DNA of 64,000 nt from Escherichia phage BYEP02, in sequence record OR757454.1; one strand, given 5' to 3'. The notes under the pieces were generated by a model, which was not told where the DNA came from, made no database searches, and worked only from the letters and a program-made list of their open reading frames with translations. Made by a program: the position numbers and the translations under genes. Positions 4,285 through 61,625 of the stretch are shown here, one piece after another; positions within the stretch are counted from its first letter, which is position 1, and every line of letters begins with the position of its first letter.

Positions 4285-6612
4285 ATGATGGAACTAATTA
4301 CAGAATTATTTGACGAAGATACTACTCTTCCGATTACAAACTTAAATCCAAAGAAGAAAATACCACAAATTTTTTCAGTTCATGTTGATGACGCAATTGA
4401 ACAACCAGGCTTTCGTTTATGTACCTATACATCTGGAGGTGATACTAATCGTGATTTAAAGATGGGCGATAAAATGATGCACATTGTTCCTTTTACATTA
4501 ACTGCTAAAGGTTCAATTGCTAAATTGAAAGGTCTTGGTCCAAGCCCAATTAATTATATCAATTCAGTTTTTACTGTTGCAATGCAAACAATGCGTCAGT
4601 ATAAAATTGATGCCTGCATGCTTCGTATTCTTAAGTCTAAAACCGCTGGTCAAGCTCGACAAATTCAAGTTATTGCTGATAGACTTATCCGTAGTCGTTC
4701 AGGTGGCAGATACGTCCTTCTTAAGGAACTCTGGGATTATGATAAAAAGTATGCATATATTCTTATACATCGCAAAAATGTATCACTAGAAGACATTCCA
4801 GGAGTTCCGGAAATTAGTACCGAGCTCTTTACTAAAGTTGAATCGAAGGTCGGTGATGTTTATATCAATAAAGATACTGGAGCTCAAGTAACTAAAAATG
4901 AGGCAATTGCAGCATCTATTGCAAGGTCGGTGATGTTTATATCAATAAAGATACTGGAGCTCAAGTAACTAAAAATGAGGCAATTGCAGCATCTATTGCA
5001 CAAGAAAACGATAAACGTTCTGACCAAGCTGTAATCGTTAAAGTTAAAATTTCCCGTAGAGCAATTGCACAAAGTCAATCATTAGAGTCTTCTAGATTTG
5101 AAAGTGAATTATTCCAGAAGTATGAATCTACAGCAGCTAATTTTAATAAACCAGCTACTGCACCTTTAATTCCCGAAGCAGAAGAAATGAAAATTGGAAT
5201 TAATTCATTAGCTTCTAAAACTAAGGCAGCAAAAATCATTGCCGAAGGAACTGCAGATGAACTTCATTATGACTATAAATTCTTTTCAAAAAGTGAGGTT
5301 AATGAAGTTTCTGAAAAAATTAAAGATGTAATTCTTAATGCGATTAAAAATGAACCAACCACTTCAATAAAATGTTTAGAGAAATACGCAGCAGCTGTTA
5401 ATCAATTCTTTGAAGAATATAAAGATAATTGGCTTGATAAACATAATAAAACACGTAAAGGACAGCCAGATGAAGTCTGGGAAGAAATAACTAAAAATTC
5501 CTGGAACGCGACAAAAACTAAATTCCTCAAAAGAATGATTTATAGTTTCTCTGGAATTGGTGCAGGTCCAATGATTGATATTACTATTGCCCGTGATGGT
5601 TCTAAATATACTCCATCACAAAAGCGCGGCATTAGAGAGTATTGCGGTTCAGGATATACTGACATCAATAATCTTCTTTTAGGACGCTACAATCCAGAAC
5701 GATATGATGTAATGAGTGAAAAAGAAATTGAATCTGCTATAAATAACTTAGATTCAGCTTTTGAAAATGGTGACCGCATACCGGAAGGCATCACAGTTTA
5801 TCGTGCTCAAAGCATGACTGCTCCTATATACGAAGCATTAGTTAAAAATAAAGTATTCTATTTCAGAAATTTTGTATCTACTTCTTTAACTCCTATCATT
5901 TTTGGACGTTTTGGATAGTTAAAAATAAAGTATTCTATTTCAGAAATTTTGTATCTACTTCTTTAACTCCTATCATTTTTGGACGTTTTGGAATTACACA
6001 TGCTGGTATTGGTCTTTTAGAACCAGAAGCTCGCAATGAATTAACAGTTGATAAAAATGAAGAAGGAATAACTATTAATCCAAACGAAATAAGAGCGTAT
6101 AAAGAAAATCCTGAATACGTTAAAGTTCAAATAGGATGGGCAATTGATGGAGCAATCCAAACGAAATAAGAGCGTATAAAGAAAATCCTGAATACGTTAA
6201 AGTTCAAATAGGATGGGCAATTGATGGAGCTCATAAAGTTAATGTTGTATATCCAGGAAGTCTCGGAATAGCAACAGAAGCTGAAGTTATTCTACCGCGT
6301 GGATTGATGGTCAAAGTTAATAAAATAACTGATGCTTCTAATAATGACGGAACAACATCTAATAATACAAAACTCATTCAAGCTGAAGTTATGACCACGG
6401 AAGAGCTCACCGAATCGGTAATCTATGATGGAGACCATTTAATGGAAACTGGTGAATTGGTTGCAATGACAGGTGATATTGAAATAGAAGACAGAGTTGA
6501 CTTTGCATCATTTGTTTCATCAAATGTTAAACAGAAAGTAGAATCATCTCTTGGAATTATTGCGTCTTGCATAGATATTGCAAACATGCCTTACAAGTTC
6601 GTTCAAGGATAA
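4285..6612 (+). CDS. alt: ADP-ribosyltransferase Alt, interrupted by three 77-nt duplications
   Basis: N-terminus MELITELFDEDTTLPITNLNPKK recognised as T4 Alt; TATAAATA late promoter 21 nt upstream; total length fits about 682 aa plus three 77-nt inserts. Confidence 0.8.
4846..4999. repeat. 77-nt tandem duplication
   Basis: Period 77 verified; in alt. Confidence 0.9.
5841..5994. repeat. 77-nt tandem duplication
   Basis: Period 77 verified; in alt. Confidence 0.9.
6075..6228. repeat. 77-nt tandem duplication
   Basis: Period 77 verified; in alt. Confidence 0.85.
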
Positions 6613-9422: not shown

Positions 9423-11272
9423 TTAATTAACTCCAGTCGCATCAAATACACCAGGAGCAGTTGTGCTTGTGACAGGTGTCATATTATGAACGACAGTATT
9501 TTTCTTAATAACATTATTAGTATTATTGATTGAAGGAGATGCTTGCTGAACAGGAGCTTGCTGTGCTTTGTTCTTTTCAATAACCTGGACCTGTTTCGCT
9601 TCTGGCGATTTAGCAGAAGTTTCAGGTTTGGCATTAGGCTGATTTTTCTTGAGCTCTTGATAAGTAGCATCAATTTTAGAAAATCTAGCAGCAAGTTCTT
9701 TTTTAACTGCCGGTGAATTGTTTAAATCCGGGTCATCCATCCGTTTTTTAAGGTCTTCATAGGCAGATTCAACAGATTTAACCGTTGAGTCTTTACTCAT
9801 ATCAGCTGAATCAGCATATTTTTCAAAACGAATCATCGCGGCACGTGCTTCATTAGCCTTCATTAAAGCATTTTTTCTTTCTTCAGGTGAAAGCTGCTTT
9901 AATTTTTCTTCTTCTGCTGCACGTTCTTCGTCGGTAGTTAGTGCTTCTTTATTATCAACACCGCGAATCCAATTAGATGCACGAGTTTTCCAATTAGCAA
10001 TTTTATCTAATCCTTTTGCTATCGGACCAAGGTCTCCGTTCATTCGTTTATCTTGATAATTTGCAACTTTTTCTTGGTCTTCTTTATTGAGAGATGCTCC
10101 AGTAGAATTTTGGAAATTTTCCAATGCTCTTCCTTCTACTTCATCAGCAGTATCCTTCATACCAGGAATGACTCGAAGAATTGCTGCAGATAATTTAGCC
10201 ATACCTAATTGAATAAGCTCTCCTAAATTAAAAAGAACACTTCCAAGTCCTTCTATGATAGCTGTTGTCAATCCACCCCAATCTCCCGCTTCCCAAAGTT
10301 GTTTAATTTTATCAATAGAATCAAAGATGCTCTGTAATAAAGGACCCCACCACCCCAATCTCCCGCTTCCCAAAGTTGTTTAATTTTATCAATAGAATCA
10401 AAGATGCTCTGTAATAAAGGACCCCATGTTCCGGTTTCGCTAGAGAATTTAGTAAAATCAGTACTATATAAATCCCAGGCTTTTGAAAATTTATCTGACC
10501 AGTATTTAAAATGAACCATCAACAGGTCTATTCCAACAACAACAGCCAATATCATTGCAGTCATTTTAGCAGCTTCAATAGCAGCACTAACGGTATACTT
10601 AAATAGCATGCTTGATATTTTATCAGTAATTGAAATAGATTTCTTAAATCCAAAATCAACTGTCTTTGTTAATTTATCTAAAGCTTGAGATAATTTTAAG
10701 TTAAATGCTTCTTTTTTCTGTTTTTCTTCTGGTGATTCTTGTTTGGGTTCAACTGGTTGAGGGGTAGGGAAAAAATCAGCGTCAGGATCATTATTAACTG
10801 CTTCGGGAGCTGGTAATAAAGGACCCACAGATTCGGCAGTATCATCCTCAACGACTTTAACAGGAATAGCGCTTTCAACCGTGGCTAAACTAGTTCCCGT
10901 CTGTTGAATTCCAGCTGTCTGAATTTTTTGCTCTAGTAAACTTGTTAATTTATCTAATTTGCTTCCGAGTGATTCACCGATTTCTTTATTAATATTGTTG
11001 CCAATTTCGACAGTTTCAGCAATTAACTCAGAACCAGCAGTAGTATCACTCACTGCGCTTTCTACGTTATCAATTGCTCCAATTATTTCATTCGATTTTT
11101 CTTCGACAGTTTGAGCTATTAATTCAGAAGCAGCTTGAGCATCATCCAATTTCGTAGAAATGTCATTAAGCCCAGATAAAGTATTAGAAGCGGATTTAGC
11201 CGCTTCCTGTGTTGGTTTATTATCTGAAATAACTTTTCTACGCATCGTTTGCATTTCTTGTGGCTTTTTCAT
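9423..11272 (-). CDS. 29: tail tape-measure / baseplate hub protein, one 77-nt duplication inside
   Basis: Length 1850 nt = 590 aa + stop + 77; gene order 28-29-48. Confidence 0.8.
10273..10426. repeat. 77-nt tandem duplication
   Basis: Period 77 verified; in gene 29. Confidence 0.9.
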
Positions 11273-11802
11273 TCAAATAATCCAATAATATTGCCAATTC
11301 CAGTTATTGGACCATTAGGGCCAGGAATTGCTAAAGTTGTAAAAATATCATTTGCCCATTTTAAAACGAATGCTGGCATCTCAAGAAAATTAATTTCTTT
11401 AACTTCATCATTGACCTTAAGCAAGCATTTGGATAACATATCGCTCACAGTTAAAAATTGTTCAAATTTTCCAGGCGGTCTAAAATAAAATGTATTTCCT
11501 TGGTATTGAAATTCTAATCTTTGGCATACATAAACATCATTAATGTCATAAGTATAACCATCTATTTCTTTACGAGATTTAATCTTTCCATTAAATTCCA
11601 ATAAATGAATAGAAACGAAATCAACTTCTGCTGGTGATAAATTCGGACAAATAGAATCGATCAAAAGTTTTAAATTTTCATCAGGACCTTTAACATCTTT
11701 TAAAATGTTATAATGTTTAAGACCCATTTTAGGAATAGAAACTTCTTTATTGCTTATTGGAAGAACTACTTTCTTCAGTGGTAGTATCAGATTTAAATTC
11801 AT
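11269..11802 (-). CDS. 28: baseplate hub distal subunit (177 aa)
   Basis: 177 aa as in T4 gp28; gene order. Confidence 0.8.
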
Positions 11803-12999
11803 TTTTAACCTTAACTGGGTCTATTGTTTCCAGTTTCGTTGCATTAGTGAACATATATAGATGAGTTACTGAATTATTATTGGATAATTCATGGATAACT
11901 TCATCAACGTAAAATTCTGTTTTAAATTGGTTTTTACTATCATTAAAAATAATTTTAACGATAATTCATGGATAACTTCATCAACGTAAAATTCTGTTTT
12001 AAATTGGTTTTTACTATCATTAAAAATAATTTTAACACCAGGAGTCAAGTTAAAATTACCGACAGTAGAACATTTAGCATAGCCATCATATTGCGCCATA
12101 GTTTGAAGACGAATAGCTTCTTCATATCCATTCCTATAAGTCATTTCAGAATAAGCACCTGACCTTGACACTACAATAGAGTTTTCTCCCTTTCCTGTAG
12201 TAATCATTGGCAATGAAGAATCTAAAAATGAATGAGCATAGATAGTAGCGTTTTTCATTGGGTCACGTTTGTGAGGATTCGATTTAGTCAACCAAACGAA
12301 ATCATATGCTAATGGATATTTTAATTCTTGGATGAATTGACCTATTAAAGATGGCTCACCGACAATCATTGGATACGGTTCTTGATTTATCATCATATCA
12401 TAGTCCATCATGTTAACTCCCATGATGTCTTGCCACACAAATACAAATTTGTCACTTCCTACAGCTAGAGCAACTTCTCTAACATACGACAAATAGTTTT
12501 CAAATGTGCTAGTCCATGGAATATCAGGAACATAAGCATTTATAGCATTTATTGCTGGAGTTAATAATGTACGGTCTTGATAAATGACGCCAAGCATTTC
12601 TTTTATAGATTCACCTGCATCAGGGAAAAATGGTCTACCAAATTTAAGATTTTCTATAGAATGAATAGTTCCCAATTCAATAGCAATGATGTTATCGCCT
12701 TTTGAATCGACTGACACGGAAAAATGCTTACATCCATAAATTCGTGTTTTAACATTATTAATATCATTTGCATTAGCTACAGAAATCTGAATTATTTCAT
12801 TTCCATCCATTTTTGTATGGATGTTTTTAGAATCATAAAACTGCAGCATTCCTTCATTTCGGCCATAAAGAGAATCCCGCATAGTTAATGTGGTAATAGT
12901 AGCAGCTAATTCAACAAATCTATTATTACTCCAAGCGTCGTAGCTATCAAATAATTTAACGCTGAGATTTGGATATCCGGGGCGTTGCAACATACTCAT
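11757..12999 (-). CDS. 27: baseplate hub protein, one 77-nt duplication near the 3' end
   Basis: Recognised gp27-like translation; with one copy removed the frame continues ...[15 protein letters not shown]...SSSSNKQ to a stop near 11758, overlapping the gp28 start. Confidence 0.8.
11888..12041. repeat. 77-nt tandem duplication
   Basis: Period 77 verified; in gene 27 3' region. Confidence 0.9.
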
Positions 13000-13748
13000 T
13001 ATTGTTTATCCTTCTCAATCAGTTTTAATACGAATCCGCGCTCAGCAGGAATCATTTTCATTATTGAATTTAAGCTATAATTACTTTTTACGAGTGTGTG
13101 ATTAATTTGATAAAAAGTAAATATCTCATCTGGGTTAACTAATAGCTTAAACACGTCTACTATATCAGTGTATTTTTTAATGTACTTATTACAGCATGAC
13201 ATATGTAGAGTTAAATTAATAGGATTCATTGCATCGAGAATTTTTTCTAATGTTTCTATCTCGATGGCGTCAACGAGTTCTATTTGACTGGACTCGCTAA
13301 TTTCCTTCCAATCATACCAAGTTTCATCTACTTGAACAGAATGAATATTTTCAGTAATCATCTTTGCTTTATTTTCATAAAACTCAGAAGGAAACTTTAA
13401 TTTAATTTTAACATTAGCTACATCAAAAACAGGTTCCTTTAATTCTTTTTGATATATTTCAAATGGAACTGTCTTTTCTTTTTTACATTTTGGACATACG
13501 AATGTGACTGGTACTTTTGTTTTACCTATCGACCCTACAAATACCTGCAAAAATATAAATGGTTGCCAAGTCTTCGGATAGTCTCCAAAATAATCATCAA
13601 TTAAATCAGTAATTATTTCTTTTTGTTCTTGTGGTGACCGATGTTCTATATCGTTTCGAACTAACAAAAAATCTCGATAATCTTCTACCGTAAATGGTTT
13701 AAAACGATGAACACCATCTGGTAATTTACAACGAATAATGTTTGCCAT
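12999..13748 (-). CDS. 51: baseplate hub assembly protein (249 aa)
   Basis: 249 aa matches T4 gp51; divergent from gp26 with shared late-promoter palindrome. Confidence 0.75.
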
Positions 13749-13765
13749 AGATGCTCCTTTTATTC

Positions 13766-13773
13766 TATTTATA
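13766..13773 (-). promoter_or_regulatory. late promoter core TATAAATA (gene 51)
   Basis: Reverse-strand TATAAATA overlapping the gene 26 promoter; 18 nt upstream of gp51 ATG. Confidence 0.6.
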
Positions 13774-13777
13774 AATA
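13770..13777 (+). promoter_or_regulatory. late promoter core TATAAATA (gene 26)
   Basis: Exact motif 22 nt upstream of gp26 ATG; part of palindrome TATTTATAAATA. Confidence 0.65.
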
Positions 13778-13798
13778 TGATAAATAAAGGAGCTAAAT

Positions 13799-14425
13799 AT
13801 GTATGAATACAAATTTGATGTGAGAGTTGGTTCTAAAATAATCAATTGTCGCGCATTCACGCTTAAAGAATATCTAGAACTTATTACTGCCAAAAATAAT
13901 GGTTCTGTAGAAGTAATTGTTAAAAAGCTAATCAAAGACTGCACAAATGCAAAAGATTTAAACCGCCAAGAATCAGAACTATTATTGATTCATTTATGGG
14001 CACATTCTCTCGGCGAAGTTAATCACGAAAACTCCTGGAAGTGCACCTGTGGAACTGAAATACCAACCCATATAAATCTATTACATACACAAATAGATGC
14101 ACCAGAAGACCTCTGGTATACACTGGGTGACATTAAAATTAAATTCCGATACCCTAAAATTTTTGATGATAAAAATATAGCCCACATGATAGTATCATGC
14201 ATAGAAACGATTCATGCTAACGGGGAAAGCATTCCAGTTGAAGACTTAAATGAAAAGGAACTAGAAGATTTATATTCTATCATCACAGAGTCAGATATTG
14301 TAGCTATAAAAGATATGCTTTTAAAACCTACCGTTTATTTGGCTGTTCCAATTAAGTGTCCAGAGTGTGGAAAAACCCATGCTCACGTAATAAGAGGCCT
14401 CAAAGAGTTCTTTGAGTTACTATAA
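13799..14425 (+). CDS. 26: baseplate hub subunit (208 aa)
   Basis: 208 aa; order 51/26/25/uvsY; TATAAATA 22 nt upstream. Confidence 0.8.
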
Positions 14426-15850: not shown

Positions 15851-16165
15851 TTAATTTAAAAGCTTTCTTCTACTTCATCGTCTGAATCTTCTAATTCAGC
15901 TCTTTTTCCTGCCAAAGCATCTCTCACAGAGATGTCATCAGTATCTTTTAATTCAGTTTCTTTGACTCTTTTCTTGTAATAAGCTTCAAGTTCTTCTAAA
16001 CCTTCTAATGTTTGACAAGAGGCAATTTTACCCATAAATTCATCAATAGAAGCTTCATAAAGAAATTGTTTAAATTACCTTCTAATGTTTGACAAGAGGC
16101 AATTTTACCCATAAATTCATCAATAGAAGCTTCATAAAGAAATTGTTTAAATCCTAGTAACATCT
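15846..16165 (-). CDS. UvsW.1-like small acidic protein, one 77-nt duplication inside
   Basis: MLLGFKQFLYEASIDEFMGKIASCQTLEG...; lies just downstream of uvsW after a hairpin. Confidence 0.5.
15999..16152. repeat. 77-nt tandem duplication
   Basis: Period 77 verified; in uvsW.1-like ORF. Confidence 0.85.
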
Positions 16166-16174
16166 TTTTCTCCA

Positions 16175-16190
16175 AAGGGCCGAAGCCCTT
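16175..16190 (-). terminator. hairpin AAGGGCCGAAGCCCTT after uvsW
   Basis: GC stem with GAAG loop immediately after uvsW stop. Confidence 0.5.
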
Positions 16191-17854
16191 ATAAATTAAC
16201 TGTTTTCATTACGTAATTAAATTTTTCATCTGCGTAGCGCTGAATACGATCAATGCCGTGTTTTAAAAGATAGTTCAAATGAACATATTTCTTTTTCGTA
16301 TTAGCAGATTTTGGCTTAACACCACAATCATCTATGAGGTCCCAGACTGTTGCGACTGTTTTAGAACCATGCTTACGTAATACACGACCGATTGTTTGTA
16401 ATACAATGATTTTTGATTTAACGCCGTGCGCTATGTCTTAGAACCATGCTTACGTAATACACGACCGATTGTTTGTAATACAATGATTTTTGATTTAACA
16501 CCGTGCGCTAAAACAACATGATGCAGATTTTTAACTGAAATACCAGTAGAAAATACACCATAACTCGCTACTATAATTATTCCTTTACCATTTTCAGCTA
16601 AGGTTTTCATTACGTTGCGGGTTTCGGTATCAACTTCCCCTGATACGTAATAAACTTTATCGTATTCATTTTTAATTAAATCGAAAATAGCTTTACCATG
16701 CGATACATGTTTAAACATGACAAAAGCGTTTTCATCTTTTTGTCATTTTTAATTAAATCGAAAATAGCTTTACCATGCGATACATGTTTAAACATGACAA
16801 AAGCGTTTTCATCTTTTTGTGCAAGCTTAATAGCTAATTTAGCGATCCATTTATTTCTTTTACTGAGCCCAGTAATAATTTTTATTTCTTCTTGGTAAGT
16901 TTTTCCCTTTAATTTAGTAGTGAACTCATCGGGATAGCGAAGAAAAATACTATTAATTTTTAACTCAGTTACTTGTCCATCTTCCATTAATTTAGAGGTC
17001 GTTACTGGCTTAAATATTTCACCAAACATTCCAACATACTGCATGATATTGGCTTTGCCGTCACGTAATGAACCAGACAAACCAAATTTAAACATGCAGT
17101 TATTTAAACCTGATATGATAGATGAAATACTTTTTCCTGTAGCAAGATGGCATTCATCATTCATCATCATTCCAAACTGTGAGAACCATTCTTTCGGTTG
17201 TTTAACTACAGTTTGCCATGTACCAACGACGACTGGTGCATCATTTTTATATTTATCATCTTTTGATGCTCCGCCACCAATTTTCTTTATCATTGCATGA
17301 CTGAATAAACGATAGTCAACAAAGTCATCAGCCATCTGAGTTGTCAGAGCAGTTGTTGGAACAATGATAAGAATTTTACCTTCATAATTTTCCAAATAAT
17401 ATCGCGCAAGCAAAGCTTGAATTAAAGATTTACCAGCAGATGTTGGAAGATTAAGAATTCTACGACGATTAACTAATCCTTCGAACACTGCATCTTTTTG
17501 ATACCAGTGCGGTTCAATTCTTTTATTTCCTGAATAGATTTCTAATTTAGAAAGCCATTCATCAAAATCTTTTCTTGATAATTCTTCTTTTTCGTTAATT
17601 TGTGGGTCAATCCAGGCTTTATAGCCAAAGTTATCACAGAACTTTTTAATTTGCCCGACTAAGCCGAATGGAAGAAGACGATTATAATCTAAAAGACGGA
17701 TTCGTCCATCCCAGTGGCCATATCTGTACTTCGGATTAAAACGATACCCATCAGCTTCAAAGCTAAAGAAATCACGGAGTTCATGAAATGTACTTTCTTC
17801 GCAATCAATTCTCACGTGACTAAAATCATAAAAATGTACTTTAATGTCAGTCAT
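16189..17854 (-). CDS. uvsW: SF2 helicase UvsW, two 77-nt duplications inside
   Basis: Walker A PTSAGKS and DECH box; about 503 aa once 154 nt of duplicate is removed; TATAAATA about 30 nt upstream. Confidence 0.85.
16358..16511. repeat. 77-nt tandem duplication
   Basis: Period 77 verified; in uvsW. Confidence 0.85.
16667..16820. repeat. 77-nt tandem duplication
   Basis: Period 77 verified; in uvsW. Confidence 0.85.
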
Positions 17855-17883
17855 GTCTAAATACCATGTAATAAATATATCTA

Positions 17884-18671: not shown

Positions 18672-20167
18672 ATGACTTTTACAGTTGATATAACTCCTAA
18701 AACACCTACTGGAGTTATAGATGAGACTAAGCAGTTTACTGCTACGCCCAGTGGTCAAACTGGAGATGGACCTATTACCTATGCTTGGACTGTTGATGAT
18801 GCACCGCAGGAAGAAACGTCTGCAACTTTTAGTTATGTACTAAAAGGTCCTGCTGGACAAAAGACTATTAAGGTAGTTGCAACAAATCCAGTTCCTGATT
18901 CTGAAGCTGAAACAGCTGAAATTAGTACAACTATCACAGTTCAAAATAAGACACAAACAACTACTTTAGCTGTAACTCCTGGTAGCCCTGATGCTGGAGT
19001 GATTGGAACTCCAATTGAATTTACCGCTGCCTTAGCTTCACAGCCATCAGGTGCAAACGCTACATATCAATGGTACGTTGACGGTTCTCCTGTGGGCGAA
19101 GCAACTGGCACTACATTCAATTACACTCCTGACGCAAGCGGAGTTAAAACAATTAAGTGTGTAGCTCAAGTAACCGCGACAGATTATGATGCAAAGGAAG
19201 TTACTTCTAATGAAGTGTCACTGACTGTTAATAAGAAAACACAGACAACTACGTTAGCCGTAACTCCTGCTAATCCTCCAGCAGGAGTTATTGGAACCCC
19301 AGTTCAATTTACTGCTACCTTGGCTTCACAGCCACCAGGAGCGTCTGCTACGTATCAGTGGTATGTTGACGGTTCTCTGGTCGATGGAGAAACTACTACT
19401 ACATTTAACTATACTCCTACCACAGTTGGAGCTAAAACAGTTAAGTGTGTAGCGCAAGTAACTGCAGAAAATTACAATGAAAAGGAAGTTACTTCTAATG
19501 AAGTATCATTGACTGTTAATAAGAAAACAATGAATCCACGGGTTACATTGACTCCTCCTTCTATTAACGTTCAGCAAGATGCTTCGGCTACATTTACTGC
19601 TAATGTTACGGATGCTCCAGAAGAAGCACAAATCGAATATTCATGGAAGAAAGATTCTTCTCCAGTAGAAGGGTCAACTAATGTATACACTGTTGATACA
19701 TCATCTATTGGAAGTCAAACTATTGAAGTTACTGCAACTATTACTGCAACTGATTACGATAGCAAAACTATTACAGCAGAAGGTCAAGTTCAGGTAACTG
19801 ATAAAGTTGCTCCGGAACCAGAAGGTGAATTACCTTATGTTCATCCTCTTCCACATCGCACTTCAGCTTATATCTTGATAAAGTTGCTCCAGAACCAGAA
19901 GGTGAATTGCCTTATGTTCATCCTCTTCCACATCGCACTTCAGCTTACATCTGGTGCGGTTGGTGGGTTATGGATGAAATCCAAAAAATGACCGAAGAAG
20001 GTAAAGATTGGAAAACTGAAGATCCAGATAGTAAGTACTACTTGCATCGTTACACTCTTCAGAAGATGATGAAAGACTATCCAGAAGTTGATGTCCAAGA
20101 ATCGCGTAATGGATACATCATTCATAAAACTGCTTTAGAAACTGGTATCATCTATACCTATCCATAA
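18672..20167 (+). CDS. hoc: outer capsid protein Hoc with four Ig-like domains, one 77-nt duplication inside
   Basis: Ig-like repeats (TFTVDITPKTP...; QTTTLAVTP...) and capsid-binding C-terminus ...GIIYTYP; about 472 aa after removing the duplicate. Confidence 0.85.
18949..19542 (+). repeat. diverged in-frame 297-nt tandem repeat inside hoc (two Ig-like domains)
   Basis: Two 99-codon units NKKTQTTTLAVTP...EVTSNEVSLTVNKK, roughly 80-85% identical. Confidence 0.8.
19800..19953. repeat. 77-nt tandem duplication
   Basis: Period 77 verified; 3 mismatches, all synonymous; in hoc. Confidence 0.9.
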
Positions 20168-20746: not shown

Positions 20747-21828
20747 ATGTTTAAAAAGTATAGCAGTCTTGAAAATCATTACAATTCTAAATTCATTGAA
20801 AAACTTTATAGTTTAGGATTGACTGGCGGCGAATGGGTAGCTCGTGAAAAGATTCATGGTACAAATTTCTCGTTGATTATTGAGCGCGATAAAGCAACTT
20901 GTGCTAAACGTACTGGACCGATTCTTCCTGCTGAAGATTTCTTTGGGTATTGATTATTGAGCGTGATAAAGTAACTTGCGCTAAACGTACTGGACCAATT
21001 CTTCCTGCTGAAGATTTCTTCGGTTATGAAATTATTTTAAAGAATTACGAAGATTCTATTAAAGCTGTCCAAGAAATTATGGAAACTTCAGCTGTTGTGA
21101 CTTATCAAGTTTTTGGCGAATTCGCTGGACCTGGCATTCAGAAGAATGTCGATTATGGCGATAAAGATTTTTATGTATTTGACATTATTGTTACTACCGA
21201 AAGTGGTGATGTAACTTATGTTGATGATTACATGATGGAATCGTTTTGTAATTCATTTGGGTTTAAAATCGCTCCACTTTTGGGTCGTGGTAAATTTGAA
21301 GATCTTATTAAACTTCCAAATGATTTGGATTCTGTTGTTCCGTCTTATAATTTTACCGTAGATAATGCAGGTTTAATTGACGCTAACAAATGTGTTTGGA
21401 AAGCTGAAGCCAAAGGCGAAGTATTTACCGCTGAAGGATATGTATTGAAACCTTGTTATCCTTCTTGGCTGCCTAATCGCAATCGTGTAGCCATCAAATG
21501 CAAGAATTCTAAATTTAGTGAAAAGAAAAAGTCTGATAAGCCTATTAAAGCTAAAGTTGAACTGTCAGAAGCTGATAACAAATTGGTGGGGATTTTAGCT
21601 TGTTACGTTACACTAAACCGAGTAAATAACGTTATTTCTAAAATTGGCGAAATTGGTCCAAAAGATTTTGGAAAGGTGATGGGACTAACTGTTCAAGATA
21701 TTTTGGAAGAAACTTCTCGTGAAGGTATTACTCTAACTCAAGCGGATAATCCTTCTTTGATTAAAAAGGAATTAGTTAAAATGGTACAAGATGTACTTCG
21801 TCCGGCTTGGATTGAATTGGTAAGTTAA
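20747..21828 (+). CDS. rnlB: RNA ligase 2, one 77-nt duplication inside
   Basis: EKIHGTNFS adenylation-lysine motif; 334 aa + 77 nt. Confidence 0.85.
20874..21027. repeat. 77-nt tandem duplication
   Basis: Period 77 verified; 6 mismatches, 5 synonymous; in rnlB. Confidence 0.9.
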
Positions 21829-23218: not shown

Positions 23219-23245
23219 TGCGCTTTCCTTTTGGTTTATATGATT

Positions 23246-23253
23246 TATTTATA
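23246..23253 (-). promoter_or_regulatory. late promoter core TATAAATA (gene 24)
   Basis: Reverse-strand motif 28 nt upstream of gp24 ATG. Confidence 0.6.
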
Positions 23254-23269
23254 CCATAAAAACAACTAA

Positions 23270-23287
23270 AGGGACCCGAAGGTCCCT
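23270..23287 (-). terminator. hairpin AGGGACCCGAAGGTCCCT after gene 23
   Basis: GC hairpin between gp23 stop and the gene 24 late promoter. Confidence 0.6.
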
Positions 23288-23301
23288 TAAATCGTCAAAG
23301 A

Positions 23302-31535: not shown

Positions 31536-34165
<2,630 letters not shown>

Positions 34166-35025: not shown

Positions 35026-36958
<1,933 letters not shown>

Positions 36959-40188: not shown

Positions 40189-40844
40189 GCTGTTCTCTCA
40201 AAATGATAAAGTACTGTAGGAGTCTGCTGATTATCTAAAGTTACAGTTTGTGCGCCTAATAAATTCCATGTACCATAGCCAGGTTTAGACTCAGAAATAA
40301 TTTCCTGCGAAATAGTTATTCCATATGTAGAATATGTGCTTAATACATGTTTTTGATTGTCTAAATAAGTAACTTCTAATTTACTACCATCTGTTGGATG
40401 GTCTTTATATGAATTGATAGCAGTAAATGACGCAATAGCTTCTTGTAGTGCAACACGAACTTTGGCAACAAACTCGATAGCTGTCATTCCGGTTGTTGCT
40501 GAAACTGGAAGACCAAATACTAATACAGTAACAGGAGAACCAGGAGGAAGCGAATCATCTGTCACAGTTCCTGAAAATGCCCAATAATCAGTTTGAGAAA
40601 CACCCTCAGGAGAAACACCAGTTTTATTAGTAATAATTGTACCAACGTCTTTTATAGAAAAATTATGAACGTCATTAATAGCTGATTCTACGTTTGGTTC
40701 ATAAAATCCTTTCGCTAATTGAGAAATTGTCACTGACCCAACTGATTGACGATTCATTACATCTATATTACCAGCTTTAGGTCTAAAACCAAGAAAATCG
40801 GCTAAGCGGGAAATAACTCCCGCTTTATTATTAAGTAAACTCAT
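40185..40844 (-). CDS. 11: baseplate wedge / short-fibre attachment protein gp11 (219 aa)
   Basis: [20 protein letters not shown]...; start inside copy 1 of a junction duplication. Confidence 0.85.
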
Positions 40845-40953
40845 TATGCAATCCTTATCCAACGATAAACTGTAATAGCTAAGCGGGAAATAACTCCCGC
40901 TTTATTATTAAGTAAACTCATTATGCAATCCTTATCCAACGATAAACTGTAAT
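40800..40953. repeat. 77-nt tandem duplication
   Basis: Spans gene 10 stop and gene 11 start. Confidence 0.85.
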
Positions 40954-42729
40954 ATATGGTTGAATGTTAGTTATTGATGTTGGCGGAGTGTGAGTAGAGT
41001 TAGTAGATGCTTTAGCTTCACGGTATTTAGTGTAGATTGGACCGGATTCATCTGGATCGTATTGACACCCACCAACAATGACTGATCCATTTTCATCAAC
41101 TATTAGAACTTCTTCATCTGTTTCAGTTGCAGGAAGATTAGCATTTTCCAATGTAACAGAAGTAGAACCACCTGTTCCACCTGCAGTATGTGAAGGATTT
41201 CCACCCGAATCTAAATCGTTGTTATTTAGAGCAAAGTTAGGGTCCGAAATATCTTCATTCCATCCAACTAAAACTTTTCCTTGCCCAAATAATTTCCATG
41301 AGCCGAATCCCATATATGTAACAGGGTTATTTGGATTAACAGCGTTTTCATATATAGTTCCAATAGGATAAATCGTATCAAAGATATTTGAAACAGCATT
41401 AAATTCGCGTTGGTAAGATTGAACTGCTTCTACATTTGGCCAACCAATTTTATCGAAGTCTGTTAAATTTACATCACCAGAAATATCTACTCCCGGTCCT
41501 TGCGATACATAAAGATTATCAGTTTCATCAATAATCTCATCTTTTGTTAATAATGTACCCAAATCATTATTAAACCAGGTGATATTGATAATGTCACCAT
41601 GCTCAAATACTCTATCGAAATGTAAAATTTCCGGTATGCCGTTTTCATCAGTTTCAACTGAATAATCGGTATGAGATTGTTCCCAAGTTCCACCTAAAAC
41701 AGAGCATTCTACTTCATCGTCTGAATCGGCACCAACACAATGAAATAATGGCATTCCAACTGTTCCAGCCAATTCCTGCAAAATCCCGTTAAAACGAACC
41801 TCAAGAGAATTAGGATTAATAGGTTCTCCTGGAATTAATCCAAAAGCAGAAAATGGAATTGATTTCATTGTTGATAAATCAGTAACGTAAATACTTCCTT
41901 CTAAAGAAGTTTTTGACGTTAATTTTGAATCTAACAATCTAATTTGACGTCTTGTATATGAACTTCTCCACTGCGATACACCATCCATAAATGTTTCAAT
42001 TTGAACAGTGTCACCAATATTACAAGGCTGTCTTAATCGAATATTAAATCCATCAAGAGGAACTAGTTCTCCTTCATTTTCGCCCGGAGAGCCAAAATCG
42101 CTGTTTTCGCTAAACACATCGCCGTAATACAATTCGTTACCACGATGTTTTACTCTGATGTTATTTACATTATAACTGGTTCCACGGAAAACATCTAAAA
42201 AGTCTGTTTGTCCTTGGACTTCGACTAAAAATTCTTTACGAGCTACATTACTAATGTCTGAACTGGTAATTTTGTCAATTTGTTTATTTTTGACATATTC
42301 CCAACGTCCTGGGGCACAATACACTAGTTCTAAATCGCTGAATTGAACATTAATTTCAACTGGTACTGCAGACCCTTTAATCGTATCGCCGGAAGCAGCT
42401 ACTAGTGTAACTGGGTTGACGTTCCATGTAGCAAATACGTCTCTAGCTCTAATTACCTTGTTGTAATCATTAACTGTACCCTTTGGAAGATTTATAGTCA
42501 CTCTTCCAGAAGATGTATTAATAGCGTATGATTTTCCCCATTCTGCTGTTAATGTTTGTCCTGATGAAGCATTATAAGTTTTCCAGGCACCAGCTGAATA
42601 TGGAACATCACCATCACCGAGTTCATAATAAAGCTCATCAAAGTTTTCATTTATTTTTATACCACCTTTACGCAGGTAGTCACCGGTACCATCATCTACA
42701 ACATTACCGATATTAATATTTTGTTTCAT
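40921..42729 (-). CDS. 10: baseplate wedge protein gp10 (602 aa)
   Basis: 602 aa; gene order 9-10-11. Confidence 0.9.
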   Translation of the reverse strand: MKQNINIGNVVDDGTGDYLRKGGIKINENFDELYYELGDGDVPYSAGAWKTYNASSGQTLTAEWGKSYAINTSSGRVTINLPKGTVNDYNKVIRARDVFATWNVNPVTLVAASGDTIKGSAVPVEINVQFSDLELVYCAPGRWEYVKNKQIDKITSSDISNVARKEFLVEVQGQTDFLDVFRGTSYNVNNIRVKHRGNELYYGDVFSENSDFGSPGENEGELVPLDGFNIRLRQPCNIGDTVQIETFMDGVSQWRSSYTRRQIRLLDSKLTSKTSLEGSIYVTDLSTMKSIPFSAFGLIPGEPINPNSLEVRFNGILQELAGTVGMPLFHCVGADSDDEVECSVLGGTWEQSHTDYSVETDENGIPEILHFDRVFEHGDIINITWFNNDLGTLLTKDEIIDETDNLYVSQGPGVDISGDVNLTDFDKIGWPNVEAVQSYQREFNAVSNIFDTIYPIGTIYENAVNPNNPVTYMGFGSWKLFGQGKVLVGWNEDISDPNFALNNNDLDSGGNPSHTAGGTGGSTSVTLENANLPATETDEEVLIVDENGSVIVGGCQYDPDESGPIYTKYREAKASTNSTHTPPTSITNIQPYITVYRWIRIA

Positions 42730-50203: not shown

Positions 50204-50574
50204 CTATTTAATGAATACTTTAGATGATGCCTGAGCCACAGTATCACCGCATGATATTGGATCAGCCATTTGAACAGCTTTCTTTCCAGTGACATATACC
50301 TTAGAAGTTCTAGGTTGTGTCACTCCGCCATGTGTTTCATATGGCTTTTTAATTTCTGTATGTTCTGTAATTGGATCACCTGCTACGAGAACAGCAATTC
50401 CTCCAGTGAATACTTTACTTTGTGTAGCATTCACAACTGTTGGAGGCCAGGATCGCCTGCTACTAGAACAGCAATTCCTCCAGTGAATACTTTACTTTGT
50501 GTAGCATTCACAACTGTTGGAGGCCACGCTTCATGGCCAGCAGTAACACACTTATCATAACTTAATCCTGACAT
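50204..50574 (-). CDS. 5.4: PAAR-repeat spike-tip protein gp5.4, one 77-nt duplication inside
   Basis: [29 protein letters not shown]...; 97 aa + 77 nt; between gp5.1 and gp6. Confidence 0.7.
50373..50526. repeat. 77-nt tandem duplication
   Basis: Adjacent copies, 2 mismatches; in gene 5.4. Confidence 0.85.
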
Positions 50575-51171
50575 TTATGGCCTCTCATACACATAGCTTC
50601 TCAGTTTATTAGCCCAACGACTCCAATTTCCAACTATAGTTTTAGTATAATTTTTAACGAGAGTTTTTCTTATTGGAGCAGGAGGATCCGTTGGTTCAGT
50701 AGTATCAGAAGATGACCTAGAATTACTGCCAGAACCTCCAGATTCACTTTGTTCTTGGTAGTCATATATTAATGTTACTTCGTAAGTGAATGTCTTCTGG
50801 AGGTTTTGAGGAGCTTTCCATAGATTTGTTCTTGGTAGTCATATATTAATGTTACTTCGTAAGTGAATGTCTTCTGGAGGTTTTTAGGAGCTTTCCACAA
50901 ATACAACTGAGTGTCAGAATCAGTAGGAAGTTCTTCCCATGAAGCAGCAGTTTTAAATTCATCACCTAAACGATATTTCAACGCGTCATTTCCAAATCCA
51001 AACACAGATTCATACGTTCCATATAAACGATTTTCTTCTACTAAAACCCCAGGAGTTTCTTCGTAACTAGTTATATTTATAGATACTAACGTTTCACCTG
51101 TTTCTAATTGAGCGGTAAAGGTGACGTCGATAGAAGAACCTTCCATGGATTCTCCTAAATCAGCGCTCATT
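50575..51171 (-). CDS. 5.1: gp5.1-like protein, one 77-nt duplication inside
   Basis: Starts MSADLGESMEG 10 nt after gp5 stop; ends ...YVYERP directly before gp5.4 ATG. Confidence 0.5.
50749..50902. repeat. 77-nt tandem duplication
   Basis: Adjacent copies; in gene 5.1. Confidence 0.85.
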
Positions 51172-51180
51172 GGAAGTATA

Positions 51181-53293
51181 TTAGCCAATGTCAATCCTCG
51201 ATCCATCAATTGTGTATTGACCAGATGAAATAGAACTCATAGATGCCATTTTTTCTGTCCAATCACCACCAACGTCCCAATCAACTGTCCCAGCAACTTT
51301 CCAAGAAAGATTTCCATTTACTGTATTAGTTTGATTTCCTTCCCACCAACGTCCCAATCAACTGTCCCAGCAACTTTCCAAGAAAGATTTCCATTTACTG
51401 TATTAGTTTGATTACCTTCAACTAAAGTGGTAGCATCTCCTTTAACTGTAATGTCAGCATTACCTTCAACTACAATAGTAACATTACCTTTAACTAGGAT
51501 AGTTCCATTACCTTCAACCGTCTTAGTTTCATCGCCTCTAACAAATATCGTATTGCTTCCATCTATTTGGTGAAGACGATTATCCATGTTGTAATAAATT
51601 TCTGATCCACCGACGTTAGTCTTTTTATCGCCGGCTACCAAAAAATTACCATCAGCATTTGTTATATCATACAAATTATCAACAGTTTTTCTTGTTCTTC
51701 TTCCTGACCGGCTACCAAAAAATTACCATCAGCATTGGTTATATCATACAAATTATCAACAGTTTTTCTTGTTCTTCTTCCTGACGGTGATACTTCCTCA
51801 TACGTTCCAGTCGGATGAACTAATCTGTATCGTTCTTGCCCAGGGGTATCATCAAATTCCTGAATATGCCCACTTTCAGTTTCCATTGTATGCACATAAG
51901 GATATTCGCCTTTATATGAAGAAACTGGTTCTTTGAATAAAATTCTCGAGTCATTTGGAATAGGAGGGTCAGCCGGGTCAGAAGACTTTGCTACAGTAGC
52001 AGCCATTGCTGACAAAGACCTAGCCGGTGTTTTCACTTCAATACCGTATGATTCTCAGAAGATTTAGCTACAGTCGCAGCCATTGCCGATAAAGACCTAG
52101 CTGGAGTTTTCACTTCAACACCATATGATTCCAAATTCCCCGTAAGAATAATCATGGTAACACGGGATGCACGGCCTTTTGTTTGTTGATACCACAATGA
52201 ATCACGACCGGCTTTATATGCTTTTTCCCAATCTCCTGCTAACATAGCAGTTAACATTGTGTTAAATTTAGCTACACCGCCAACACCCATCTGAAATGCC
52301 ATATTTTCTAATGCCATTTGGCGAGAACGGTTGACAGCTTGCCAGACTGGTCCTACTTTAGAATGTGATTTAATGTCGCGTTGCATATCAGCCAAATCAC
52401 GTTCAAATAGAGTCGTCGCTTCTTCCATTGTAATAGAACCTGGATTTCCGGTAATTTCACGACCAACTTGTTTTGATAAAACTTTATTAATTTGGGCCAT
52501 ATCACGAACTGGCTGCTTCATGATAAGATGACCAATACCAATTGTCGGATATCCTTCAGTATCCCAATAAACTTTTAGTCTTAATCCTTCATCACGGCGA
52601 AGCATTTCAGCCATTGACATATTTGGATTATCATCAGTTGGAATCTCTGATAGTGGTCTATCATCGGGTCACGGCGAAGCATTTCAGCCATTGACATATT
52701 TGGATTATCATCAGTTGGAATCTCTGATAGTGGTCTATCATCGGGATTTATTGCGGTGTCTAAGTTACTATCTTGAATAACATTAGAAGAGGAATCATAT
52801 CCTACATCACCACCTTGGTTTAATACGTTCGTATCATTTCCTAAACGTCTAGGATATTGCCCAGTTGGGTCAGAAAATCCTTCAAGTCTATTCGGTTTTT
52901 CGCGAACTATTCCACCATACGTGCCAAGGACAATTCCGTTAGTTTTCCATTTGTCTAAAAAATGACCATAAACTCTAGTTCCTTCTACCGGTCCAGTAAC
53001 AGAACCTCCAATTCCAGACATTGCTGCAGAAGTTATAGGTTGAATAACTGACATCCATGGTAATTTTTCAGTTGGAATACCCATTACATCACCTTGCGCT
53101 CTTTGTGGTGGATGCAGACCAACCACACGAACACGAACACGACCTAATTTTAATGGGTCCATTCTATCTTCAACAACACCAACAAACCAATTGAACCAAC
53201 CACACGAACACGAACACGACCTAATTTTAATGGGTCCATTCTATCTTCAACAACACCAACAAACCAGTTGAGGTTATTACTTATCATTTCCAT
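51181..53293 (-). CDS. 5: baseplate hub + tail lysozyme gp5, five 77-nt duplications inside
   Basis: MEMISNNLNWFVGVVED start; lysozyme domain MSMAEMLRRDEGLRLKVYWDTEGYPTIGIGHL; VxGxxx beta-helix repeats; C-terminus SGQYTIDGSRIDIG; 575 aa + 5 x 77. Confidence 0.9.
51266..51419. repeat. 77-nt tandem duplication
   Basis: Adjacent copies; gene 5 beta-helix region. Confidence 0.85.
51631..51784. repeat. 77-nt tandem duplication
   Basis: Adjacent copies; in gene 5. Confidence 0.85.
51980..52133. repeat. 77-nt tandem duplication
   Basis: Adjacent copies with many third-position differences; in gene 5. Confidence 0.85.
52591..52744. repeat. 77-nt tandem duplication
   Basis: Adjacent copies; gene 5 lysozyme-domain start. 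Confidence 0.85.
53118..53271. repeat. 77-nt tandem duplication
   Basis: Adjacent copies; gene 5 N-terminal region. Confidence 0.85.
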
Positions 53294-54034: not shown

Positions 54035-54042
54035 TATAAATA
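54035..54042 (+). promoter_or_regulatory. late promoter core TATAAATA (gene 4)
   Basis: Exact motif 27 nt upstream of gp4 ATG. Confidence 0.6.
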
Positions 54043-54049
54043 TATTATC

Positions 54050-54057
54050 TATTTATA
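54050..54057 (-). promoter_or_regulatory. late promoter core TATAAATA (gene 53)
   Basis: Reverse-strand motif 29 nt upstream of gp53 ATG; divergent from the gene 4 promoter. Confidence 0.6.
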
Positions 54058-60486: not shown

Positions 60487-60576
60487 GGAGGCGTGGCAGA
60501 GTGGTTTAATGCACCGGTCTTGAAAACCGGCAGTCGCTCCGGCGACTCATAGGTTCAAATCCTATCGCCTCCGCCA
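60487..60576 (+). tRNA. tRNA-Ser (anticodon TGA), type II
   Basis: Acceptor GGAGGCG/CGCCTCC; anticodon loop CTTGAAA; long variable arm; CCA encoded. Confidence 0.8.
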
Positions 60577-60736: not shown

Positions 60737-60811
60737 GGCCCTGTAGCTGGAAGGTTCAAGCAAGCGACTCATAATCGCCAGATGGTGGTTCAATTCCACC
60801 CAGGGCCACCA
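60737..60811 (+). tRNA. tRNA with anticodon CAT (Ile2-type or Met)
   Basis: Acceptor GGCCCTG/CAGGGCC; loop CTCATAA; T-arm GGTTCAATTCC; D-arm atypical. Confidence 0.6.
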
Positions 60812-60820
60812 AATTAATTT

Positions 60821-60907
60821 GGGGAGTTATCCCGTAGAGGTAGCGGTGTGGACTGTAAATTCATTGTCATTGCGACTCGGGTGGTTCGACTCCACCACTC
60901 CCCACCA
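60821..60907 (+). tRNA. tRNA-Tyr (anticodon GTA), type II
   Basis: Acceptor GGGGAGT/ACTCCCC; anticodon stem GTGGA/TTCAT with two G-U pairs; loop CTGTAAA; long variable arm; T-arm GGTTCGACTCC. Confidence 0.55.
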
Positions 60908-60911
60908 ATTT

Positions 60912-60986
60912 GGATGTGTAGCTCAATGGCAGAGCGATCGCCTGTTAAGCGATTGGTTATAGGTTCGAATCCTATCACGTCCGCCA
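60912..60986 (+). tRNA. tRNA-Asn (anticodon GTT)
   Basis: Acceptor GGATGTG/CACGTCC; D-arm GCTC..GAGC; anticodon stem ATCGC/GCGAT, loop CTGTTAA; T-arm GGTTCGAATCC. Confidence 0.65.
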
Positions 60987-61100
60987 AATTTGTGACAACT
61001 GTCACATTAATATCTACTTGACGCGATTATAGGGGTTGAACTGATCACTCTTCTCTTAATTTCGTGTGAAGACATCTTGATTGTTGGAGTAGGTATTAAT

Positions 61101-61176
61101 GTGGCCGTAGTTCAGTTGGTAGAACTCGAGATTGTGATTCTCGTAGTCATGGGTTCGACTCCCATCGGTCACCCCA
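61101..61176 (+). tRNA. tRNA-His (anticodon GTG)
   Basis: Acceptor GTGGCCG/CGGTCAC; anticodon stem CGAGA/TCTCG, loop TTGTGAT; T-arm GGTTCGACTCC. Confidence 0.7.
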
Positions 61177-61180
61177 ATTA

Positions 61181-61256
61181 CGGGGCATAGCTCAGAAGGA
61201 AGAGCAAGGACCTTCTAAGTCCTAGGTCGTAGGTTCGATCCCTACTGCCTCGACCA
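61181..61256 (+). tRNA. tRNA-Arg (anticodon TCT)
   Basis: Acceptor CGGGGCA/TGCCTCG; anticodon stem AGGAC/GTCCT, loop CTTCTAA; T-arm GGTTCGATCCC. Confidence 0.75.
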
Positions 61257-61274
61257 ATTATAAGTGAGGAAAAT

Positions 61275-61625
61275 ATGAAAGGTAATGTTTATTTAGTAGT
61301 TCATGATTTAACATTTTACTTCAATGAATATGAAAAACATATCTCATTTCGTGAAATTAATTTACTTTATCAACATGCGGATTATATTTATATTCAAAAC
61401 GAATTTGGTCATTGGCAATTTCTCAAAAATCGTTCATTTGGCTTAGATGGTTACGAATACTTTGAACGTAAAGACCTTTTAGATAAAATTCCGTTATCTA
61501 CGCAATATCAAAATCACAAATCTTTATATAAATGCCGTCCAATTCGAAATGTTGAATCCGCGTATGAAGCAATTGATTTATGGCGTGAACGCCGTAAACA
61601 GATTGATGCTTTAAAAGAATATTAA
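61275..61625 (+). CDS. hypothetical protein (116 aa)
   Basis: ORF with GAGGAAAA RBS directly after tRNA-Arg. Confidence 0.5.
   Translation: MKGNVYLVVHDLTFYFNEYEKHISFREINLLYQHADYIYIQNEFGHWQFLKNRSFGLDGYEYFERKDLLDKIPLSTQYQNHKSLYKCRPIRNVESAYEAIDLWRERRKQIDALKEY

Follow-up and report, generated by a model that had tools for sequence, protein, structure and literature searches.

In bacteriophage T4 the two baseplate-hub genes 27 and 28 share a stretch of sequence. The T4 reference record (NC_000866.4) places gene 27 at 117228..118403 and gene 28 at 118348..118881, and 56 nt (118348-118403) therefore belong to both. The overlap is an ordinary feature of the T4 reference annotation and as such was already known. 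A search of the literature for experimental statements on coupling or overlap at T4 27/28 or 16/17 returned none that was usable. Quantitative data on re-initiation at gene junctions come from reporter constructs in E. coli, in which re-initiation peaks at an overlap of 4 nt, is approximately constant from 0 to +25, and falls linearly for overlaps of more than 10 nt, at least 25 nt being recommended to prevent coupling (Tian and Salis 2015, PMC4538824). When the line through these data is extrapolated, re-initiation is already reduced at 17 nt, reaches zero by ~28 nt and is absent at 56 nt. For gp28 itself, a 2010 review of tail morphogenesis gives a mass of 17.3 kDa, and a sequence search of the PDB returned no solved structure of the protein.

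The window analysed here, 64,000 nt of Escherichia phage BYEP02 (OR757454.1), is that of a T4-type phage. Whole-window alignment shows it to be the reverse complement of ~69.5-129.7 kb of T4 (NC_000866), with which it is collinear and mostly 96-98% identical, and more than 490 T4-type phages match positions 10000-14000 at 95-99% identity in megablast. The alignment with T4 is broken into about 60 blocks, whose identity ranges from 84 to 99%, and at each break the T4 coordinate goes back by 77 nt. The most divergent genes of the window are those for Hoc, 74% identical to T4, and Alt (4288-6612), ~70% identical; the hoc region (18951-19529) also carries a natural internal repeat of 288 nt with 80% matches. 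Three homing-endonuclease genes of T4, segC (together with 5.3), segD and segE, are absent, and because of this the pairs 5.1/5.4 (50574/50575), 23/24 (23219-23301) and uvsW/inh (17849-17867) are drawn close together. A further ~870 nt at 60757-61624, between the tRNA cluster and the small stable RNA genes, have no alignment with T4, which has segB at this place.

Using Tandem Repeats Finder and our own scan, we found 55 tandem duplications across positions 1274-62982. The period is exactly 77 nt in 53 of them, the remaining two, at 60531 and 61887, having periods of 77/78 and 81 nt, respectively, and the spacing of the duplications is irregular, from 211 to 5649 nt (examples are at 11883-12036, 40801-40954 and 53118-53271). 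None is present in T4, where each corresponds to one of the 77-nt steps back in the alignment. The two duplications of the gene 27/28 region are also missing from the best-matching phage records, among the matches listed; these records match in split pieces and span 77 nt less for each duplication. Each duplication shifts the reading frame, 77 not being divisible by 3. At least 46 of the 55 lie inside coding sequence, as judged from T4 gene homologues, and at least 35 genes are affected, many of them essential. Breakage on this scale is incompatible with a viable phage, and the duplications are therefore taken to be artefactual, introduced when the sequence was compiled.

As to the cause, we infer that de Bruijn-graph edges or contigs (k = 77) were joined without trimming of the k-mer overlap. 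The duplications resemble such a concatenation artefact in having one fixed length that equals a common assembler k, in their irregular spacing, in their absence from relatives and in the disruption of essential genes. They differ from it in that approximately half of the copy pairs are non-identical, down to 88% (for example 51978-52131, with 68 of 77 positions identical, 20873-21027 and 36024-36178), whereas raw k-mer overlaps would be exact. For the non-identical pairs, separate polishing of the pieces, or an origin of the pieces in different co-occurring strains, would have to be assumed. Adjoining blocks may thus derive from different T4-like templates or have undergone separate polishing, and co-occurring strains may have been combined in the window as a chimera. 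Exact searches of viral_contigs, metagenome_contigs and genome_contigs gave no match to the 31-mer across a duplication junction.

We deleted the second copy of every duplication, which left 59,760 nt. In this de-duplicated sequence nearly every T4 protein is recovered by tblastn at full length and in T4 order, and the lengths of the overlaps equal those of the T4 annotation at all pairs except 30.1/30 (1 vs 4 nt). The uvsW gene (~15900-16250) still reads in two frames, one covering T4 residues 2-511 and the other 505-587, and small indels with respect to T4 are found near the break, the second block beginning at 16077; this could be a real split arrangement of the uvsW/uvsW.1 type or a sequence error. 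Gene calling on this window must begin with the removal of the 77-nt duplications, and the overlaps flagged in it are trustworthy only after that step.

All of the genes considered below are on the minus strand of the window. Gene 27, for the hub subunit gp27, extends over 11747..12999 and encodes 391 aa after removal of one 77-nt copy. With the T4 protein as tblastn query against the de-duplicated window, residues 1-391 are covered at 99.5% identity, and the restored length is that of chain D of PDB 1K28 (391 aa). In the raw window the reading frame of gp27 extends only over 11866..12999, is 377 aa long and falls short of gene 28; it is frame-shifted and stops at 11866 because of an exact 2 x 77-nt duplication at 11883..12036 (77 mod 3 = 2), the two copies of which are 100% identical and which T4 does not have. 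Gene 28, for the hub distal subunit gp28, extends over 11269..11802 and encodes 177 aa, 99.4% identical to T4 gp28. The two genes overlap by 56 nt (11747..11802), the same length as in T4, and the frame of gene 28 is +1 with respect to that of gene 27. The gp27 stop codon is the TAA at 11747..11749, the position of which varies among relatives. At the other end of the overlap is the translation initiation region of gene 28, AAGGTTAAAAATGAATTTAAA (11792..11812), near-invariant in the Tevenvirinae, in which the Shine-Dalgarno (SD) sequence AAGG occupies 11812-11809 and the start codon ATG 11802-11800; read in the gene 27 frame, this region gives residues K-V-K-N-E-F-K of gp27. The sequence-only reading of the window had proposed that the restored gp27 frame ends about 46 nt inside the gp28 start (11757-11802). 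The overlap is real once the duplication is taken out, but its length is 56 nt; a length of 46 nt would require the TAA at 11756-11754, and this codon is in the third frame, used by neither gene. In the T4 reference too the gp27 stop falls 56 nt inside gene 28, and not upstream of its start, the position that would have refuted the reading.

Upstream of gene 51, the late-promoter consensus TATAAATA is found at 13766..13773, scored as an exact consensus match only. A consensus scan revealed no other exact match on the same strand from 13766 to gene 54, and it is therefore probable from the sequence that genes 51-27-28-29-48-54 form one late transcript. Over the whole window, exact copies of TATAAATA occur 26 times, where 8.9 are expected, and back-to-back divergent pairs lie between genes 51 and 26 (13766-13777) and between genes 53 and 4 (54035-54057).

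Of 59 same-strand neighbour pairs in the window, 28 overlap: 14 by 1 nt, eight by 4 nt, two by 8 nt, one by 14 nt, two by 17 nt and one, 27/28, by 56 nt, the longest. The two overlaps of 17 nt are those of genes 16/17 (33509..33525), for the small and large terminase subunits, and of genes 53/5 (53277..53293); both had been given correctly in the sequence-only reading and both equal T4. The gene identities of that reading are also right, as are most of its overlap lengths, and they agree with the T4 reference. The same reading had listed four pairs as sharing TAATG or ATGA junctions, and this is borne out for two of them, 9/10 (TAATG at 42729, as in T4) and 10/11 (TAATG at 40844), each with 1 nt shared. 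The other two share no nucleotide: in 13/14 (TAA-t-ATG, 35873..35875) the codons are separated by a 1-nt spacer, the T4 pair being likewise non-overlapping (94553/94555), and in 5.1/5.4 (TAAATG, 50574..50575) they abut, the two genes being adjacent here because segC and 5.3, which lie between them in T4, are absent. The 10/11 and 13/14 junctions occur twice in the raw window because they lie inside duplicated blocks (40801-40954 and 35801-35954, respectively).

The comparison across relatives used 9 GenBank genomes, from several Tevenvirinae genera, and 35 IMG/VR loci whose gp28 shares 45% identity or more with that of T4. Throughout this set the block AAGGTnAAAAATGAAyTTAAA, which runs from the SD of gene 28 through the spacer and the ATG into its first codons, is near-invariant, and it is read in the gp27 frame as K-V-K-N-E-L/F-K. 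The end of gene 27 shifts. Overlaps of 29, 44, 47, 50, 53, 56, 59, 68, 89 or 101 nt are found in Tevenvirinae-like genomes, with differences even between close relatives (50 vs 29 nt, 44 vs 68 nt), and the gp27 tails beyond the start block are hydrophilic and unrelated in sequence. In the outgroups (Acinetobacter, Aeromonas and Krischvirus relatives) the junctions are of 1 or 4 nt, and in one genus gene 27 is on the other strand. The distance to a stop codon expected by chance in this base composition is ~14 codons; T4 runs for 18. In one T4-type locus, IMGVR_UViG_2974742932_000001 (2001-2586), the gene 27/28 region contains ~55 extra bases with respect to T4 (58 gap positions), and the gene 28 match there is consequently 586 nt long and not 531.

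The invariant start, the shifting stop and the 1- or 4-nt junctions of the outgroups lead us to read the long overlap as a run-on tail. On this sequence evidence the most likely course of events is that an ancestral gp27 stop, at a 1- or 4-nt junction of the ATGA or TAATG type, would have been lost in the Tevenvirinae lineage, the ancestral state being drawn from a handful of outgroups. From there gene 27 would have continued, at -1 with respect to the frame of gene 28, as far as the first chance stop. The outcome would be a short hydrophilic gp27 tail of variable length, with the start region and N-terminus of gene 28 kept under selection. The near-invariant A-rich start block could in addition have a further function. 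The 53/5 overlap looks like a second case of the same pattern, a lineage-specific run-on tail after loss of a stop codon: among relatives a length of 17 nt is confined to the three T4-type loci, and the 24 other loci overlap by 1 or 4 nt. At 16/17 the overlap is 17 nt in 16 loci, 23 nt in seven and 1 nt in six. Overlap length should not, then, be taken as a measure of the strength of translational coupling.

Coupling was nevertheless what the sequence-only reading had taken the overlaps to imply. At 27/28 it would mean that ribosomes finishing gene 27 re-initiate 53 nt upstream of their stop codon, at the start of gene 28, or are otherwise needed for initiation there, and the overlap would exist to tie gp28 output to gp27 output. 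The two genes are probably on one late transcript, as the promoter scan suggests, and an overlap is kept throughout the Tevenvirinae; an interaction between gp27 and gp28 is reported in the reference cited as B27 in PMC3004832, and in the T4 literature conserved overlap of reading frames is commonly taken as a sign of coupling, as for dsbA/33 (PMC2988020). Set against this are the distance, which at d = -56 is far outside the range in which re-initiation is measured or detectable, and the variability of the overlap (29-101 nt), unlike a tuned coupling distance. Gene 28 has its own conserved SD, and there is no inhibitory RNA structure for upstream ribosomes to melt: no stable structure was found over the gene 28 start in a 141-nt window (MFE -14.3 kcal/mol vs -15.9 +/- 2.9 for shuffles, z +0.56), an 81-nt window gives z -0.74, again no improvement on shuffles, and most of the SD and AUG is left unpaired in the folds. 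The starts of gp17 (z -0.93) and gp5 (z +1.04) do not fold better than shuffles either. We consider coupling at 27/28 unlikely. Gene 28 is most likely translated independently of gene 27, a conclusion for which the measurements are those of the E. coli reporter study and not of T4. It would be begun de novo at its own SD (AAGG) and ATG, which lie within the gp27 codons K-V-K-N-E; ribosomes that terminate 53 nt downstream would be unlikely to re-initiate there, and any effect of gene 27 ribosomes on gene 28 would be occlusion as readily as stimulation. The part of the coupling claim that survives concerns the 1- and 4-nt junctions of the window, where the spacing fits and coupling is plausible; the 17-nt overlaps of 16/17 and 53/5 are intermediate and borderline for re-initiation.

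Three other explanations bear on the overlap itself. If gp28 began at the internal Met26, giving a product of 152 aa, the start would lie 19 nt downstream of the gp27 stop and there would be no real overlap, so that the choice of start matters. The computed mass of this form, 17.34 kDa, matches that of the review and the 20.12 kDa of the 177-aa form does not, and in the annotations of phages SF and EcS1 gene 28 starts downstream of the gp27 stop, with calls that are shorter still. The T4 reference record (protein version.2), however, has 177 aa, with reference to N-terminal sequencing of the protein. All relatives have homologous residues 1-25, even the outgroups, where that stretch is clear of gene 27, and position 26 is Leu or Phe in seven of 11 other aligned genomes. 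Met1 is served by an invariant SD and ATG, and no SD-like motif is seen in the 18 nt that precede Met26. In codons 1-11 of gp28 the variable columns fall at third positions (8/11) and hardly at second positions (1/11), a bias that indicates selection on the gp28 frame within the overlap. We regard a start at Met26 as very improbable, and the comparison across T4 relatives favours the 177-aa form beginning at Met1 over the 152-aa (17.3 kDa) form of reviews and of some GenBank records. Alternatively, a programmed frameshift might carry some ribosomes from gene 27 into the gene 28 frame to make a gp27-gp28 fusion in the manner of lambda G/GT. The record of Citrobacter phage Moon (NC_027331, 487-2125) has a two-piece joined CDS labelled 'GT-like fusion protein; T4 gp28-like', and the five A's before the ATG (GTT AAA AAT G) are invariant, so that a +1 slip of tRNA-Lys would reach the gene 28 ATG. 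Yet gene 28 is in the +1 and not the -1 frame in all Tevenvirinae examined, GTT AAA AAT GAA contains no X XXY YYZ heptamer, no stimulatory structure accompanies it, and the invariance is fully explained by the SD, spacer, ATG and dual coding. The Moon genome paper is silent on frameshift or fusion, the N-terminal sequencing cited in the T4 record fits a free gp28 with its own start, and the gp27 chains in the PDB are of 391 aa only, with no chain containing gp28. It is highly improbable, therefore, that a small fraction of ribosomes slips +1 on the Lys codon to yield a gp27(1-373)-gp28 fusion of ~63 kDa with a role in hub assembly; if true, such a fusion would explain both the joined frames of Moon and the fact that gp28 has never been located in baseplate structures. 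In a milder variant, the long overlap could be kept since it uncouples, or negatively couples, gp28 synthesis from that of gp27. Finally, the raw window has no 27/28 overlap, and it might be asked whether deleting the duplication creates a frame that is absent from the real phage. To this we give almost no credence: the two copies are identical and the choice between them is irrelevant, after de-duplication the window is collinear with T4 and with the closest of the listed relatives, from which the duplication is absent, and the alternative would leave a phage with at least 35 genes broken by the duplications, at least 46 of which lie in coding sequence. Taken as a whole, the account that we prefer, of a normal hub cluster in which gene 27 runs on after loss of its stop and gene 28 is initiated independently, is in our judgement probably correct.

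The locus can be set beside three described systems. With the lambda G/GT fusions it has in common two adjacent tail genes with overlapping frames, a pair labelled in this way in the Moon record; it is unlike them in the +1 frame, in lacking a canonical slippery heptamer and a stimulatory structure, and in the SD and ATG that belong to gene 28. With the termination-reinitiation junctions of Tian and Salis (2015, PMC4538824), 22 of the 59 junctions in the window agree in overlapping by 1 or 4 nt, among them junctions in this range at 9/10, 10/11, 51/27 and 28/29; 27/28, at d = -56, does not resemble them. The closest correspondence is with T4 genes 27 and 28 themselves: the order 51-27-28-29-48-54 on one strand, the lengths of 391 and 177 aa, the 56-nt overlap, the +1 frame relation and the sequence of the start region are all the same, and the differences are a few point substitutions and the 77-nt duplication in the gene 27 of the window. 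What the window shows at this locus is the normal late baseplate-hub cluster of a T4-type phage (51-27-28-29-48-54), seen through artefactual 77-nt duplications.
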